From the IMG/VR virus record IMGVR_UViG_2585427792_000017: 7,149 nucleotides of DNA; one strand, 5' to 3'. Positions 1,716 through 7,149 of the stretch are shown piece after piece (the first letter of the stretch is position 1; each line of letters opens with the position of its first letter). Source of the DNA: a virus (taxonomy: Duplodnaviria > Heunggongvirae > Uroviricota > Caudoviricetes). The position numbers and the translations under genes are program-made. The notes under the pieces were generated by a model. The model was not told the origin of the DNA. It did no database searches and saw nothing but the letters and a program-made list of their open reading frames with translations.

Positions 1716-1837
1716 GTGCGCTTGTGTAGTCAGCAGGCTGCGAAACCCGACACCCGTTTTGTGAGGTGCAGCGGAAATGTAACCTGACTGATTGCGGCAT
1801 GGCAAGCGGTTTTTTTGTGTGTGCATGTTCTGGTTTC

Positions 1838-2600: not shown

Positions 2601-2623
2601 TGCGCCCCCTTTGTCCAGTAACC

Positions 2624-2938
2624 CTATGCGTGAAATACGGCACGTTGCGCGTCATCAATGAATACAGCTTGAGATCGTTCTATCAGGCGGAGATTTGTCA
2701 GAAGCTCTGACTCTTTTGTGGGGTAAGGAGTGATCAGGTAGTTACCCTGCAACCCGGCGATAATGGTGTATCGCTGTAGCTCCGAGCCAATTGTGTAAAT
2801 AAGGCGTCCGGTGTTAGACAAATCCAGTCCGGTGACTGGTTGTGTTCTGAAAACCGCCATTTCTTTGCCCTGTTCCTCAATAATTTTGGCTGCTTCAGAG
2901 GTGGCTATTGCGATGGTCAGTGCGTAAAGCGCTGCCAT
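2624..2938 (-). CDS. Hypothetical early-operon protein, 104 aa
   Basis: ORF in track. ATG 2938..2936 has only a weak Shine-Dalgarno; a small upstream ORF ends 7 nt before it (see 2946-3032). Confidence 0.6.
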   Translation of the reverse strand: MAALYALTIAIATSEAAKIIEEQGKEMAVFRTQPVTGLDLSNTGRLIYTIGSELQRYTIIAGLQGNYLITPYPTKESELLTNLRLIERSQAVFIDDAQRAVFHA

Positions 2939-2945
2939 ATGTTGA

Positions 2946-3032
2946 TTATCTTTCTGGGCTGCCCTGGACAGCTTGTCTTGTCTGTGAAACTACTTTCAAT
3001 GCACTGATAATACCTTCTTCTTTTGCGTGCAT
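2946..3032 (-). CDS. Candidate 28-codon leader ORF (MHAKEEGIISALKVVSQTRQAVQGSPER)
   Basis: Below the 60-aa cutoff of the track. ATG 3032..3030 with GGAG 8 nt upstream; TAA 2948..2946 ends 7 nt before the ATG of the SD-poor 104-aa gene. Confidence 0.25.
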   Translation of the reverse strand: MHAKEEGIISALKVVSQTRQAVQGSPER

Positions 3033-3119
3033 TTTTGTATCTCCGTTATTTGCGTGTGCGAATACCTCCGTTAATGCGGATAGTTTTCAGGTTTTCTTAT
3101 TTAATTTGATGTTTTATTT

Positions 3120-3239
3120 GTATCGTTATTCACCAGTGAAAAAACGTTCAATCTTTTTTACTGAATGAATAATTCGCATAATTCCAATGGCGCAGGCCAC
3201 CGAAATAATCAGAACAAGCCATGAGATAAATATACTCAT
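3120..3239 (-). CDS. Candidate 39-aa single-pass membrane peptide (MSIFISWLVLIISVACAIGIMRIIHSVKKIERFFTGE)
   Basis: Below the track cutoff. ATG 3239..3237 overlaps the TGA 3238..3236 of the upstream 80-aa gene (ATGA). About 20 hydrophobic residues followed by a basic tail. Translated by hand from the reverse complement. Confidence 0.35.
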
Positions 3240-3478
3240 GCGATATTCCCCAGCTTATACGGTTCAATGTGTTCCCCGCATTCTGCGGCACAGATCAGCT
3301 CGGAAAGTTCGTTAAGTGCATCCAGATCATCAGCGTAAAAAGCGACGTCATACAAACTCCGGATTGCCCTGGTCAATGAGTCACGGGCTGCACGTTCAGC
3401 ATGAGCGCCTGATGCACTTAAGCGAAAATAAAATCGTTCAAGTGCTTTGTTAATGAGAGTTTTATATTCTTTGCCCAT
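3236..3478 (-). CDS. Hypothetical early-operon protein, 80 aa
   Basis: ORF in track. ATG 3478..3476 preceded by AGGG, 11 nt after the stop of the upstream gene. Confidence 0.6.
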   Translation of the reverse strand: MGKEYKTLINKALERFYFRLSASGAHAERAARDSLTRAIRSLYDVAFYADDLDALNELSELICAAECGEHIEPYKLGNIA

Positions 3479-3489
3479 CGCAACGCCCT

Positions 3490-3768
3490 TTAATCTGCTT
3501 TCTGAATTTCAGCTTCTGAATCCATACAAATAATTTCGATATAGGGTTCATCGCCATTAACCTGACGTGCCTTTTCAGCTTCGCTAATGATTTCTCGTAC
3601 GGTCTGGTACGGAAGCTCCACAGTCAGGTGCGTACCGTTCAGATAAACGTAAGTAGCTGCGTTTTTTTCGGATGGAACAACTCCGTCAATGGCTGATGCG
3701 CGTAATAACAGTTCACCGCGAAAATCAATAAAACGGATAAATACACCTTGTGCATGGTCTTTGGTCAT
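3490..3768 (-). CDS. Hypothetical early-operon protein, 92 aa (track ORF trimmed to the internal ATG)
   Basis: The track ORF 3490..3882 overlaps the upstream gene. The in-frame ATG 3768..3766 has AGGTG upstream and sits 10 nt after the TAA (3781..3779) of the 113-aa gene. Confidence 0.6.
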   Translation of the reverse strand: MTKDHAQGVFIRFIDFRGELLLRASAIDGVVPSEKNAATYVYLNGTHLTVELPYQTVREIISEAEKARQVNGDEPYIEIICMDSEAEIQKAD

Positions 3769-3778
3769 AAAGCACCTG

Positions 3779-4120
3779 TTATAAATCAGCCTGTTTAATA
3801 AAACTTTGCCCGCGAAGCAGACGATCAACCGTGCGAAGTGCTTCGTATAATGTGAAATCCTGCCCGAACTGATTGTCACCACAGCTCAATGCAAAAATGC
3901 GGTTTCCGGTAAACGGATTGCGTGGGCATTTGTGGATCACGATTCCAGCTTTCTCAATCAGCCAGGCGTGCTCGCCGATTTGTTTTACTGGGTAGCCATC
4001 CGGCGTTGCGTGTGTATCACTCAGGCTGTAGCGGATGTTACTGCGTGATGCACTGGTAGCGAAACGGTTAGCGTGGCGTTCAGCACCATTACGAAAGCGT
4101 GAATTACGTTGCTGTTTCAT
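3779..4120 (-). CDS. Hypothetical early-operon protein, 113 aa, basic N-terminus
   Basis: ORF in track. ATG 4120..4118, 29 nt after the stop of the 69-aa gene. Confidence 0.6.
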   Translation of the reverse strand: MKQQRNSRFRNGAERHANRFATSASRSNIRYSLSDTHATPDGYPVKQIGEHAWLIEKAGIVIHKCPRNPFTGNRIFALSCGDNQFGQDFTLYEALRTVDRLLRGQSFIKQADL

Positions 4121-4149
4121 ATTCCGACTTGCCTCAATGTGTTGAAGAT

Positions 4150-4359
4150 CTACAGTCTGATGTTTCTTGTAAGTTTAAAAATTACTTCGGCCATAACTTC
4201 ACTAATTACTCCAGTATCCCGGTTGGTCAGTGCCACTTCCCATGCGGCTTTTGCTCGTGTAGGGTCTAGCCGACCTGATTTTTGTTGTGTAATGATGGAA
4301 CGTAAATCGTCATATAGTTCTTTTATGGCTGTTTCTTTTGTCTGTGTGAGGTTATCCAT
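4150..4359 (-). CDS. Hypothetical protein, 69 aa, in the AT-rich island
   Basis: ORF in track. ATG 4359..4357 preceded by AAGGTG with 5-nt spacing. Its start codon overlaps the start codon of the divergent + strand gene by 2 nt. Confidence 0.5.
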   Translation of the reverse strand: MDNLTQTKETAIKELYDDLRSIITQQKSGRLDPTRAKAAWEVALTNRDTGVISEVMAEVIFKLTRNIRL

Positions 4360-4798
4360 GGCAACACCTTCAAATATTGATGTTTTTAATGAAACTGTTG
4401 GTAAAACTTTTGCGTTTCTTTATGAGTCATTTCCCCGAAAAGTAACCATTGATGTTTGTGCTTTAACCGGTGTTTCCGCTCCAACGTTTGAAGAGAAGGA
4501 CCCGGCGGTCAGAAAGCAAAAACATGAAGCTCTTGTTCTTCGTTATTACTCCATTGAGTGGCTTATTGCTGCTGGTTATGTATCTGCTGATGCTGTTCCT
4601 TTTGAAAGTTTCGATAAGGCGGTACTTACGGCTAAAGGACTTGAATTATTGAAACTTGATCCAGAGTCACTTAAGCAATCGCTTGGAGATAAACTTGTCG
4701 ATGCAACCAAGAGTGGGGCGATAGATGCAATAAAAAGCACCGCCTCATCTGCACTTACTACAGGTATCTCCTTTGCTTTTAAACACTTGTTTGGCTAA
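4358..4798 (+). CDS. Hypothetical protein, 146 aa, opposite-strand cargo gene; function unknown
   Basis: The track ORF starts at TTG 4109. The credible start is ATG 4358 (MATPSNIDVF...) with GAGGT 5 nt upstream; stop TAA 4796-4798. AT-rich relative to flanks. C-terminus ends in a hydrophobic tail (TTGISFAFKHLFG). Confidence 0.6.
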   Translation: MATPSNIDVFNETVGKTFAFLYESFPRKVTIDVCALTGVSAPTFEEKDPAVRKQKHEALVLRYYSIEWLIAAGYVSADAVPFESFDKAVLTAKGLELLKLDPESLKQSLGDKLVDATKSGAIDAIKSTASSALTTGISFAFKHLFG

Positions 4799-4842
4799 TC
4801 GATTGATGCATCCTACATAACGTCCATTTTTGAAGTATCTAC

Positions 4843-4880
4843 GGCGAAACCTCATGTGATGGGGTTCGCTGTTTTGCTGT
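4843..4880 (+). terminator. Putative terminator between convergent genes
   Basis: Imperfect hairpin GCGAAACC / GGTTCGC (7 bp with one bulged A, 11-nt loop) followed by a T-rich tract TGTTTTGCTGT, 45 nt after the stop of the 146-aa gene. Confidence 0.35.
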
Positions 4881-4902
4881 TGCTTATTCATTTTTTGTGT
4901 CT

Positions 4903-5109
4903 CTACCCAATGAGCCAAATAACAAACGCTATGAGCACCGCGCCAATAGTGGTCGGAAAAAGACCTCTTGTATAGGCGGCGAGGTAATGAACGTTGAGAA
5001 CAATAAAGCGCTCTTTTTGTCCTGTTAGCTTGTTAAGCAGATAAATCGCTATTACACCCACTTCCAGGTACACAAAGCTCAAAATGGCGCTGATGATATT
5101 GCTGGTCAT
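4903..5109 (-). CDS. Small membrane protein, 68 aa, two predicted transmembrane helices
   Basis: C-terminal part of track ORF 4903..5358, taken from ATG 5109..5107, 10 nt after the cox TAA: MTSNIISAILSFVYLEVGVIAIYLL...LFPTTIGAVLIAFVIWLIG. No Shine-Dalgarno, only an A-rich leader. The upstream 83 codons of the track ORF overlap cox in another frame and look non-protein-like. Confidence 0.45.
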   Translation of the reverse strand: MTSNIISAILSFVYLEVGVIAIYLLNKLTGQKERFIVLNVHYLAAYTRGLFPTTIGAVLIAFVIWLIG

Positions 5110-5119
5110 TTTTGTGTGT

Positions 5120-5641
5120 TTAGTTGCCTTCGCTGCTTTTGAGTCGTTCCAGCTTTGAGCTTCTACCCATATAAACCCGTTTTCCGTTAACGGTCTGGCA
5201 GTCTTCTTTGTCGGCTGGAGAGAACTTTCTTTTCTGGCGGTCATACGTCCAGTAACTTTTCCAGTTGTGCCATTCTGGGGGCTCGTGCTCTGGTAGCTCA
5301 TCAGCCAACTTGTCCCACTCTTTGGCGTTAAACCACCATACTCCGTCTGAGTTTTCATCTTCCGGGTTTGTGCGCGTCTTGTGTCCCGGCATTTGACCGC
5401 GATGAATGGCTACGCGCAGTGCAGATTTTGTTAGCCCAATATATGCCGCGCCTTTTTCCAGAGAGCAAAGCCCGGCGATCGGACCATCCAGCCGCAAAGT
5501 CGCTCCTTTTTTGTAGGAACGCTTTTTCTTGTTTTCTTCGTGCTCGTCGTCGTTGGCGGCATCAATGGATCCGCTGAGTGCGTCACTTTCCTGAAGTGGT
5601 TGGTGGTCAGATAACTCTTTATCGGCAATGAAGTCCCGCAT
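5120..5641 (-). CDS. cox: Cox-like excisionase/transcriptional regulator, 173 aa, with N- and C-terminal extensions
   Basis: ATG 5641..5639 with GAGG 7 nt upstream. The core (LEKGAAYIGLTKSALRVAIHRGQMPGHK...DGVWWFNAKEW) resembles the HTH and following region of P2 Cox as I recall it. It is the first gene of the operon divergent from C. Confidence 0.65.
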   Translation of the reverse strand: MRDFIADKELSDHQPLQESDALSGSIDAANDDEHEENKKKRSYKKGATLRLDGPIAGLCSLEKGAAYIGLTKSALRVAIHRGQMPGHKTRTNPEDENSDGVWWFNAKEWDKLADELPEHEPPEWHNWKSYWTYDRQKRKFSPADKEDCQTVNGKRVYMGRSSKLERLKSSEGN

Positions 5642-5660
5642 TTGTTATCCTCTTGCGTTG

Positions 5661-5700
5661 GTGCGCTTGTTGCGCCTTGTGATGGTTTGTTTTGGCTTGT
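5661..5700. repeat. Four direct repeats with 10-bp periodicity, each ending in TTGT
   Basis: GTGCGCTTGT / TGCGCCTTGT / GATGGTTTGT / TTTGGCTTGT, at 5661-5670, 5671-5680, 5681-5690, 5691-5700. Helical phasing suggests a protein array on one face of the DNA. Confidence 0.4.
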
Positions 5701-5724
5701 AAAGATAACCAAAAGGTTATCTTT
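5701..5724. promoter_or_regulatory. Candidate repressor operator: perfect 10-bp inverted repeat with 4-bp spacer
   Basis: AAAGATAACC-AAAA-GGTTATCTTT. Further GGTTATCTT copy at 5748-5756 (overlapping the C start codon) and a related TGTTATCCT at 5643-5651 next to the cox start. Confidence 0.45.
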
Positions 5725-5734
5725 GTGCGAGAGG

Positions 5735-5761
5735 TTAATACTCAAATGGTTATCTTGTCAA
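5735..5761 (-). promoter_or_regulatory. Candidate early promoter Pe (- strand)
   Basis: Perfect -35 TTGACA (reverse complement of 5756-5761) and -10-like TATTAA (reverse complement of 5735-5740). The spacer is only 15 bp, so this is tentative. The -35 overlaps one GGTTATCTT half-site and the palindrome lies just downstream. Confidence 0.3.
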
Positions 5762-6087
5762 TAGACTACGCAAAAAAGTTACGTCAGATACGTAAGGCGG
5801 AAGGGTTAACACAAAAGCAGTTTGCGGATATTACTGGGTTGTCTTTGGCAACCATAAGGAATTACGAATCGGGGCAAAAGAACGCTAGAGCAAAAATCGT
5901 TGAGGCGGTTCTGCAAGTCGATCGCTTTGAAAAATACATGCTGTGGCTAATAAAAGATAAGACGCTACCTGTCGCCGGGCAGATTGCTCCGGCTCTCTCT
6001 CTTGATGGATCTATTCAGTCGGAGGGCGATCAGGTTTCAATCGGTATTACCCAAAAATCACCCCGATCAGGCCGCAATGTTGGCTGA
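5746..6087 (+). CDS. C: Immunity repressor C (P2 C family), 113 aa
   Basis: The track ORF starts at TTG 5692. ATG 5746 (MVILSIDYAKKLRQIRKAEGLTQKQFADITGLSLATIRNYESGQ...GQIAPALS) aligns by eye with P2 C (HTH, YESG, GQIAPAL). GAGAGG lies 11 nt upstream. Confidence 0.75.
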   Translation: MVILSIDYAKKLRQIRKAEGLTQKQFADITGLSLATIRNYESGQKNARAKIVEAVLQVDRFEKYMLWLIKDKTLPVAGQIAPALSLDGSIQSEGDQVSIGITQKSPRSGRNVG

Positions 6088-6156
6088 CTCTACACATTGA
6101 GCGAATTACATATCGCAAGGAGTGTTTAGTTAATTTATCCGTTGGAGGGGCTAATC

Positions 6157-7149
6157 ATGTCGATTAAGCAACTCAAAGACGGACGTTATCAGGTCGATGT
6201 CAGACCGCAGGGGGCGGAAGGAAAGCGGATTCGAAAAATCTTTGCCCTGAAATCAAAGGCTCAGGAGTTTGAGAAGTATGTGTTACAGAACTTTCATGAC
6301 AAGCCATGGCAGGCTAAGCCAGCTGATCAGCGGCGATTATCAGAGCTGCTTGATGCGTGGTGGATGCTTGATGGGCGTAATCAGGCTTACGGGGATAGCT
6401 ACAGGGTTAGGCTAGGGAAGGTTGTTCGTGAAATGGGAGATCCTCGCGCCAGTCAGATGACGCGAAAATTTATGCTTGAATATCGGTCAGAGAAATTACA
6501 GGCCGGATTAATGCCGTCCAGTATTAATCGTGACTTATGCGTACTGTCTACCATGTTCACGGTGCTGATTGAAGCTGAGGTCTTTCACAACGCGAACCCT
6601 GTACGCGGTATACGAAAACTGAAAGTTCAGAACACAGAGATGGCCTTTCTTTCTGATGATGAGATTGAACGGCTTCTTGAGCGACTGGAGGGTGATGCGC
6701 GTCGTGTTGCCATTCTGTGTCTTTCTACTGGTGCCCGATGGAGTGAAGCATCGGAACTACGTGGAGAGCATATCGTTGGCAACCGGGTGACGTTCTTTAA
6801 CACCAAAAACGGAAAATCCCGTTCGGTTCCTGTGGCGGATTCGGTCGTGCCTCTGATTAAAACCCGTCGAACGGGGTTATTGTATCAGGTTGATTATCTG
6901 AAGTTCCGGGAGATTCTTCAGGAGGTGAAACCGGATTTGCCGAAGGGGCAGGCTACGCATGTCATGCGTCATACATTTGCCACACACTTTATGATGAATG
7001 GCGGAAATATTGTTACGTTGCAACGAATCCTGGGGCACGCAACGATTCAGCAAACAATGACGTACGCTCATTTTTCGCCGGACTTTTTACTGGACGCGAT
7101 CAACTTTAATCCGCTGGCTGAAAGTGTCCATAAACTGTCCATCGATTAG
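6157..7149 (+). CDS. int: Tyrosine recombinase, P2-type integrase, 330 aa
   Basis: The track ORF starts at TTG 6142. ATG 6157 has GGAGG 8 nt upstream. MSIKQLKDGRYQVDVRPQG..., TGARWSE, HVMRHTFATHF and TMTYAHF match the P2 Int pattern including the catalytic R, H-x-x-R and Y. Stop TAG 7147-7149. Confidence 0.9.
   Translation: MSIKQLKDGRYQVDVRPQGAEGKRIRKIFALKSKAQEFEKYVLQNFHDKPWQAKPADQRRLSELLDAWWMLDGRNQAYGDSYRVRLGKVVREMGDPRASQMTRKFMLEYRSEKLQAGLMPSSINRDLCVLSTMFTVLIEAEVFHNANPVRGIRKLKVQNTEMAFLSDDEIERLLERLEGDARRVAILCLSTGARWSEASELRGEHIVGNRVTFFNTKNGKSRSVPVADSVVPLIKTRRTGLLYQVDYLKFREILQEVKPDLPKGQATHVMRHTFATHFMMNGGNIVTLQRILGHATIQQTMTYAHFSPDFLLDAINFNPLAESVHKLSID

Follow-up and report, generated by a model that had tools for sequence, protein, structure and literature searches.

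The stretch of DNA considered here (the window) comprises 7,149 nucleotides (nt) of a tailed-phage record, IMG/VR IMGVR_UViG_2585427792_000017, and is the early/lysogeny region of a P88-like (Xuanwuvirus, Peduoviridae) P2-family prophage of Escherichia coli. Its nearest deposited phages (ON470599, ON470623 and PV468777) cover 86% of the window at 96.7% identity. On the - strand, the genes run from a cox-like regulator through those for a 68-amino-acid (aa) protein, a 69-aa protein and a DUF4761 protein, and then on toward the replication endonuclease, while the + strand carries C (5692-6087) and int (from 6142). Embedded in this early lytic operon, and read against it, is a gene for a 146-aa protein that starts head-to-head with the 69-aa gene, and it is this pair, carried as a cassette, that is the subject here (Table 1). 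An earlier note on the same DNA had pointed to three open reading frames (ORFs), one of them an opposite-strand gene inside the early lytic operon. The three ORFs are as that note described them, the 146-aa gene is indeed antisense to the operon, and all three are annotated by RefSeq in E. coli FDAARGOS_943.

Table 1. Positions of the cassette, its genes and signals, and the adjoining backbone features in the window
Feature	Position	Strand	Remarks
Mobile two-gene cassette	4100-4815		Insertion relative to cassette-free relatives
146-aa acidic winged-helix protein ("BIG")	4358-4798	+	Lysogeny strand, antisense to early lytic operon
69-aa basic three-helix partner	4150-4359	-	Reads along early lytic operon
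Overlapping start codons, CATG	4357-4360		2-nt head-to-head overlap, read from sequence
Shine-Dalgarno GAGG of 146-aa gene	4348-4351	+	Inside partner codons 3-4; 6 nt upstream of ATG
Shine-Dalgarno GAAGGTG of partner gene	4365-4371	-	Inside codons 3-5 of 146-aa gene
Hypervariable segment with indels, codons 27-60	4436-4537	+	Strand 1, helix 2, N-terminal half of helix 3
Second variable patch, residues 76-85, wing tip	4583-4612	+	From column entropy
DUF4761 gene	3779-4120	-	Left-hand anchor of slot; Pfam DUF4761, E 1e-69
Terminator-like hairpin and T-rich tract	4841-4898 (stem 4841-4872)	+	About 45 nt past 146-aa stop; backbone sequence
68-aa two-helix membrane protein	4903-5109	-	Backbone gene, outside cassette
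Cox-family regulator, 173 aa	5120-5641	-	First gene of early lytic operon; right-hand anchor of slot

The gene pair and its proteins

The start codons of the two genes overlap, the ATG of the 69-aa gene occupying 4359-4357 on the - strand and that of the 146-aa gene 4358-4360 on the + strand, with 2 nt in common. Conservation of this arrangement was evaluated with homologues of the 146-aa protein, for which 108 further loci were collected beyond the annotated collections and 93 non-redundant loci were analysed. Of the 93, 54 have a small divergent gene whose product is recognisably homologous to the 69-aa protein; the 69-aa gene, described in the earlier note as a flank, is the conserved partner of the large gene. 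At 44 of these 54 loci the two genes share exactly 2 nt, and at the others the overlap is 0, -1, -4, -14 or -17 nt. The hosts of the pair include E. coli, Yersinia, Morganella, Pectobacterium, Pseudomonas and one Phycisphaerae metagenome-assembled genome. The 146-aa gene does have a Shine-Dalgarno sequence of its own, as had been claimed for it. Across 50 loci, the large gene has conserved GGAG-like bases at -13 to -9 and a conserved CTCC at +8 to +12 (the GGAG of the partner, seen on the other strand), so that each ribosome site lies inside codons 3-5 of the opposite gene. Ratios of nonsynonymous to synonymous substitution rates (dN/dS) were 0.05-0.34 for both genes in 18 pairs, indicating purifying selection. 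The island is a conserved two-gene unit, and not a single gene plus two neighbours. The apparent upstream conservation of TTGCTG...TATATAG, noted in the search for a promoter, is accounted for by the codons of the partner.

The 146-aa protein, which the earlier note could assign to no family, matches the hidden Markov model of phrog_2266 (PHROGs v4; E 3.3e-29, residues 4-141 on profile positions 2-143/144), a family that carries no functional annotation. A profile search with the 146-aa family gave 1,593 clusters at 50% identity (E <= 1e-3), with lengths mostly of about 130-160 aa among the best 150 of these matches. A literature search on phrog_2266 and the protein accessions found no mention of them, and pairing of the family with a divergent small gene is not recorded in the sources consulted on it. 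When the three island proteins and 93 members of the family were scanned with Pfam, NCBIfam and PADLOC, no family was found, so that neither the 146-aa protein nor its 69-aa partner has one in Pfam, and PDB sequence profiles returned only noise for the 146-aa family. It had been allowed earlier that a housekeeping phage function might emerge from remote homology; none was found by profile and fold searches of the cassette proteins. The label DUF2513, attached in UniRef to a 46%-identical homologue, was set aside, as Pfam PF10711 was unmatched in all 93 members at E <= 1 to 5.

An AlphaFold2 (AF2) model of the 146-aa protein (predicted template-modelling score, pTM, 0.81) suggests that it is compact and soluble. 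The family is acidic, with a median isoelectric point (pI) of 4.8 and a 10-90% range of 4.4-5.7, and DNA binding by the protein is disfavoured for this reason. The C-terminal helix has a high content of Gly, Ala, Ser and Thr. The hydrophobic tail attributed to the protein in the earlier note is not borne out as a transmembrane segment: the maximum 19-residue Kyte-Doolittle hydropathy (KD19) is 1.02 over the whole protein (at residue 58), the family median of the maximum over the last 45 residues is likewise 1.02, and a membrane anchor was rejected by comparison with the 2.23 of the 68-aa membrane protein. Among 90 homologues, column entropy is 2.1-3.2 bits in residues 27-60, as opposed to 0.2-1.3 in the conserved blocks (residues 1-26, 61-75 and 86-136). 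Together with the patch at residues 76-85, this variable segment is consistent with a diversifying recognition surface.

The 69-aa partner is characterised by the motif Q..G.MD..RA..W...L....LAE.L and was modelled with AF2 as a three-helix bundle (predicted local distance difference test, pLDDT, 91.3). Its pI is 8.1, close to the partner-family median of 8.2. A fold search with the model retrieved only generic three-helix bundles, with no informative structural neighbours. Identity of the partner with lambda gpW was considered and rejected, since a separate gpW gene, of 68 aa, sits alongside.

Each gene is also found apart from the other. Large genes lacking a recognisable partner are mostly in prophages too; one is located beside an insertion sequence (IS) in a Hachiman defence island and another in an integrative and conjugative element (ICE). 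The chromosomal island of the IS-adjacent copy (locus L013, 83-3957 and 11455-12444) has Hachiman (HamA and a DEAD helicase) and also holds a MazG-like gene and an SLFN-type helicase. At three loci of the Pseudomonas-type TerL/gpW slot (L025, L101 and L106), an ORF of 70-78 aa rich in serine, threonine, proline and arginine takes the partner's place. Its overlap is 0-2 nt at two of the three loci, while at L025 there is a gap of 17 nt, and the ORF may be either another type of partner or a shadow ORF. Conversely, seven E. coli genomes have an intact partner and a large gene reduced to 13 codons, as in E. coli EC2 (locus L127, 3489-3720; a 64-aa partner) and likewise in six other complete genomes. 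The 13-codon remnant still supplies the ribosome site of the partner.

The cassette and its insertion sites

The limits of the cassette are given by collinear phages that are without it. Homology of the Citrobacter phage Shae_phiSM to the window ends at 4099 and restarts at 4816, with 62 bp between the two points in that phage, which keeps both the 68-aa gene and the hairpin; this confines the cassette proper to 4100-4815, with the 69-aa and 146-aa genes. In the closest phages the homology again breaks at 4099 and is back at 5120, positions 4100-5119 being replaced in ON470599 and PV468777 by another insert, of 792 bp. Among 5,426 complete E. coli genomes, the adjoining backbone (3500-4099) is present in 1,397, the alternative insert of the slot in 272 and the full cassette in three, one at 99.5% identity and two near 75%. 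The collinear alignment thus supports cargo and not core, as the earlier note had proposed: neither the closest phages nor, with few exceptions, the E. coli prophages that bear the backbone have the cassette. Repeat and junction analysis revealed no insertion scars at its ends.

The composition of the island is likewise that of foreign DNA. The 696 nt at 4121-4816 have a GC content of 40.9%, the lowest in the window, which as a whole has 49.2%; 1.9% of segments of equal size are as AT-rich, and there is a second, shorter AT-rich dip at 3001-3300. The difference holds in related loci, the GC content of the cassette being lower than that of its 3-kb flanks on either side in 58 of 59 non-redundant loci (median -6.5 points). 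The AT-richness first noticed by hand is thereby upheld, and the hand counts of GC (18 in 4361-4420, 26 in 4441-4500, 36 in 1561-1620 and 29 in 5401-5460) are all exact. Presence or absence between collinear phage genomes and a composition unlike the flanks, two of the features that define a moron in the Hendrix/Juhala sense, are found in this case. A moron in that sense also has a promoter and a terminator of its own; here a terminator-like hairpin follows the large gene, in backbone DNA, and no promoter scored above shuffles. The segment 4100-4815 is a mobile two-gene "moron" cassette, rare and compositionally foreign, that forms an indel in a collinear prophage backbone.

The alternative insert (PV468777; locus L001, 5602-6393) looks like a second embedded cargo unit of the DUF4761/cox slot. 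Within it, a gene for a 63-aa protein on the + strand lies antisense to the early operon and next to a - strand gene of 140 aa, and no family was found for either protein.

The cassette occurs in several kinds of phage operon, and in every class of site the small gene reads along the lytic operon and the large gene against it. The gene downstream of the large gene is convergent with it in 51 of the 54 partner-bearing loci, often only 2-4 nt away. The P2-like early operon beside cox is occupied in the window, in two more types of E. coli prophage, in Morganella and in Yersinia. In a Yersinia enterocolitica prophage (locus L010, 4268-7059) the cassette lies between C and cox, at the lysis/lysogeny switch, and the same early operon holds a further antisense gene on the + strand, coding for a 155-aa protein of no recognised family. 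Other sites are the TerL/gpW-portal slot of lambda-like Pseudomonas prophages (14 partner-bearing loci), the slot between the tail tube and the tail chaperone/tape-measure genes (10 loci), and the position directly upstream of the small terminase (at least 4 loci).

The cassette is found as well at the A/Q hotspot of P2-like phages (loci L005, 3562-4798, and L006, 1068-2108). The earlier note had held that P2 cargo sits elsewhere in the genome; the same cassette is in fact also at this classical cargo site. In Klebsiella phage ST147-VIM1phi7.1 it abuts a type VI retron there (RT_VI, E 5e-104; HTH_VI, E 4e-31), and in Salmonella phage FSL SP-004 it abuts a Fic protein that matches PDC-S04 and SoFic. 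The cassette is thus at a place where other P2-like phages have defence genes, which agrees with the suggestion of a defence type of cargo. The A/Q site has been reported as the main defence hotspot of P2-like phages, and the integrase-to-primase region as a minor one. Overall, the earlier cargo reading was right in outline.

Neighbouring backbone genes

The right-hand anchor of the slot is annotated in relatives as a cox-family regulator, and its product matches phrog_23196 (E 3e-113) and Pfam Phage_Cox (E 1.8e-7), the latter match being confined to residues 58-129. At 173 aa, it is about twice the size of the 92-95-aa Cox proteins of the Shae_phiSM and Morganella relatives. The 68-aa protein matches phrog_14475 (E 9e-29). 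The earlier description of it as a two-helix membrane protein is consistent with hydropathy, which gives two hydrophobic helices (maximum KD19 2.23), but the gene is part of the backbone and not of the cassette: it adjoins cox in 96 E. coli genomes, 95 of which are without the cassette.

A similar correction applies to the hairpin and T-rich terminator that had been described as private to the 146-aa gene. The hairpin is present at 4841-4872, with a T-rich tail, but it is not private to the island, because it is located in DNA common to the cassette-free Shae_phiSM. On the - strand the stem is without a T-tract, and the 116-nt hairpin region overall folds no better than shuffled sequences (z = -0.68).

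The window is itself a mosaic. Positions 3049-5114 match E. coli FDAARGOS_943 at 97.6%, and 5120-7149 match PV468777 at 99%; as the two parts match different relatives, a recombination joint is placed between the 68-aa gene and cox (5115-5119). A 14-nt direct repeat, TTTTTGTGTCTCTA at 4892-4905 and TTTTTGTGTGTTTA at 5109-5122, takes in the - strand stop codons of the 68-aa gene and cox and may be a module-junction motif. Positions 2612-3048, within which is a 104-aa - strand ORF, are missing from FDAARGOS_943. In the early region, an Rfam scan identified C4 antisense RNA at 1572-1659 (-; 81 bits) and isrK RNA at 1695-1769 (-; 62 bits), with a weak match to the C4 a1/b1 target at 1730-1782 (-); no RNA family was found inside the island. 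A P1/P7-type c4 immunity RNA module thus lies inside this P2-like early region, with nearby genes annotated "derepression" and "ash" in relatives.

Relation to known systems and proposed role

The layout of the cassette resembles that of several prophage systems in which a defence gene is paired with a small inhibitor. In phage phi80, tai is antisense within the Q-dependent late operon, an arrangement termed a "noncontiguous operon"; it is expressed in the lysogen and is lowered upon Q expression, and the small gene ati reads with the late operon. Tai hits the tail fibre and blocks tail assembly, and phages carry tai genes at moron loci and hotspots (He et al., Nat Commun 2024, PMC11364771). 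As in phi80, the large gene of the cassette is antisense inside a lytic operon, the small adjacent gene reads along it, and the two are divergent with overlapping 5' ends. This Tai/Ati type of layout is found in the window (cox and the 68-aa gene on the - strand, the antisense 146-aa gene, and then the 69-aa and DUF4761 genes) and likewise in 51 of the 54 partner-bearing loci. The differences are that the taiEcA/atiEcA overlap (NC_021190) is 20 nt and that of the window 2 nt, that TaiEcA has 204 aa and no recognisable winged helix, and that the window cassette is in a P2 early operon, whereas the phi80 pair is in a Q-dependent late one.

In JBD26, tab lies on the opposite strand in the late operon, between the terminase genes, and has its own promoter, while atab is transcribed together with the late operon and its product, anti-Tab, binds Tab directly (Patel et al., Nat Commun 2024, PMC10884400). 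Here too one gene is on the opposite strand of a lytic operon and a small partner reads with the lytic genes. However, tab and atab are convergent, with overlapping 3' ends, in contrast to the head-to-head pair of the window; Tab has 83 aa, and its homologues are found only between TerS and TerL, whereas the cassette family uses many sites and the window cassette is in the early operon. For Tha/Ith of 80alpha, antisense overlapping transcription makes the defence gene and its small inhibitor mutually exclusive between lysogeny and lysis (Nat Microbiol 2024, PMC11087260), and the same principle applies to TerI/anti-TerI of Listeria. Antisense overlapping units for a large gene and a small partner are shared with Tha/Ith; in 80alpha, by contrast, it is the inhibitor gene that lies antisense, and tha is carried along in the cI operon. 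Its product is a HEPN RNase, and the hosts are Gram-positive bacteria.

Classical morons and P2 cargo (HK97 gp15, lambda bor/lom, P2 old, tin and fun/Z) resemble the cassette as indels of deviating composition between collinear phage genomes; the prophage presumably expresses them, and many act to exclude other phages. The likeness extends to position in the case of old and tin, which lie at the A/Q site where the same cassette is found. They differ in being single genes or ordinary operons, without an obligate head-to-head partner, and no homology of the island proteins to them was detected. The divergent orientation of the genes is also unlike the co-directional bicistronic operon of a type II toxin-antitoxin system, and Pfam and PADLOC scans of the cassette proteins gave no toxin-antitoxin family.

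From the layout shared with Tai/Ati, Tab/anti-Tab and Tha/Ith, the pair is proposed to consist of an anti-phage protein expressed in the lysogen and an antidote to it made in the lytic cycle, a proposal whose chances are judged to be about even; for those three systems the same logic has been demonstrated by experiment. The 146-aa gene would be expressed in the lysogen from a promoter of its own, and its product would act on other infecting phages, most likely by binding a phage protein via the hypervariable helix-3/wing face. Upon induction, the early transcript from Pe would pass antisense through the 146-aa gene and lower its expression, both through collision of transcription and through pairing of the RNAs across its ribosome site. 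That transcript would also yield the 69-aa partner, which would bind and neutralise the 146-aa protein already present and so spare the phage from its own weapon. The contrast in charge between the two families (median pI 4.8 for the large protein and 8.2 for the partner) is consistent with this antidote model, as are the seven E. coli genomes with an orphan partner, neither of them being proof of it. More tentatively, the cassette may represent a widespread undescribed defence-antidote family (about 1,600 clusters at 50% identity) in which the switch is hard-wired by the head-to-head starts and the helix-3/wing face senses phage. Each ribosome site being in the opposite gene, and the mRNAs being antisense to each other's start, defence protein and antidote would under this wider proposal not be co-produced.

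Several findings weigh against a defence protein with an antidote. In about 40% of the non-redundant loci the large gene has no recognisable partner, in some cases in the same slots, so that the antidote is either not always required or takes other forms. Orphan partners and linkage of the genes can also arise under other two-component models. No sigma-70 promoter for the 146-aa gene was found above shuffles, or at a steady position across loci, by consensus scan and position weight matrix. The Tai/Ati family was defined by PSI-BLAST homology; comparison by hhalign gave no homology of the large-gene profile to TaiEcA (probability 0.1%) or of the partner profile to AtiEcA (0.06%), and none to Tab and anti-Tab (probabilities of 0.2% and 0.1%). 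Neither protein of the pair, nor a Pseudomonas homologue, was matched in PADLOC-DB 2.0.0 (2023), which is without Tai and Tab and covers P2 cargo such as old and tin only so far as these were included by then, and the fold search with the 146-aa model retrieved only generic winged helices.

Such a winged-helix fold, together with weak matches to MarR/Rrf2-type regulators, might instead suggest a regulatory pair, in which the 146-aa protein is a DNA-binding regulator of the lysogen (e.g., an accessory repressor of phage or host genes) and the 69-aa protein an anti-repressor made upon induction. That variability falls mainly on the canonical recognition helix and on the wing, much as it does in immunity repressors, would be in keeping with this, and mnt/arc of phage P22 has a comparable divergent layout. 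Nevertheless, a regulatory pair is considered unlikely: DNA binders are seldom as strongly acidic as this family, a search of 3900-5300 gave no operator-like inverted repeats, and the cassette moves among unrelated phages and among early, late, head and tail operons, and thus carries no fixed target. A reversal of roles, with the small lytic-operon protein as an anti-defence factor against host immunity and the winged-helix protein as its Aca-like regulator, appears improbable. Known acr-aca pairs are co-directional operons, the large protein is acidic, and its partner-less occurrence in defence-island and ICE contexts would be unexpected of a dedicated regulator; the small, helical, fast-evolving partner, placed with lytic genes and kept alone in seven E. 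coli genomes, would be in keeping with such a role.

Toxicity of the 146-aa protein (e.g., by its C-terminal helix on the membrane), with the 69-aa protein as antitoxin and with stabilisation of the prophage or killing of infected cells as the outcome, is given an equally small chance. This toxin-antidote or abortive-infection model would account for the pairing of the large gene with a small, fast-evolving one whose product has the complementary charge, for the Gly/Ala/Ser/Thr-rich C-terminal helix and for the existence of orphan partners. But the tail is too polar for a membrane span (KD19 1.02, against 2.23 in the 68-aa neighbour), the pTM of the model suggests a compact soluble protein, and the large gene stands alone in about 40% of loci; moreover, because the genes are not co-transcribed, a lysogen would produce toxin without antitoxin. 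That at least one of the two ORFs is spurious, the island being a decaying remnant or filler without coding function, would fit with the lack of a Pfam family for either protein, and has already been refuted to the point of having almost no probability left: both genes are under purifying selection, their Shine-Dalgarno sites are conserved, the structure models are confident and full-length homologues number in the hundreds.

In summary, and pending experiment, the cassette would best be filed as a sequence-novel variant within a class, defined only lately, of prophage defence genes that have lytic-cycle self-immunity. Interest in prophage defences that must leave their own phage unharmed is recent: four or five such systems have been worked out since 2021, each of them found singly. 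The present cassette belongs to a sequence-unrelated family with the same genetic grammar, which is common in prophages of Pseudomonas and Enterobacterales and is without an entry in Pfam, NCBIfam, PADLOC-DB 2.0.0 or PDB, and the DUF4761/cox slot of P88-like phages in which it lies is a cargo site with at least three alternative inserts. If the proposed role is true, a new defence/antidote family would be added, an antisense gene in a lytic operon with a small head-to-head partner would provide a search rule for similar systems, and the pair would be a natural case of mutually exclusive expression from overlapping start codons.

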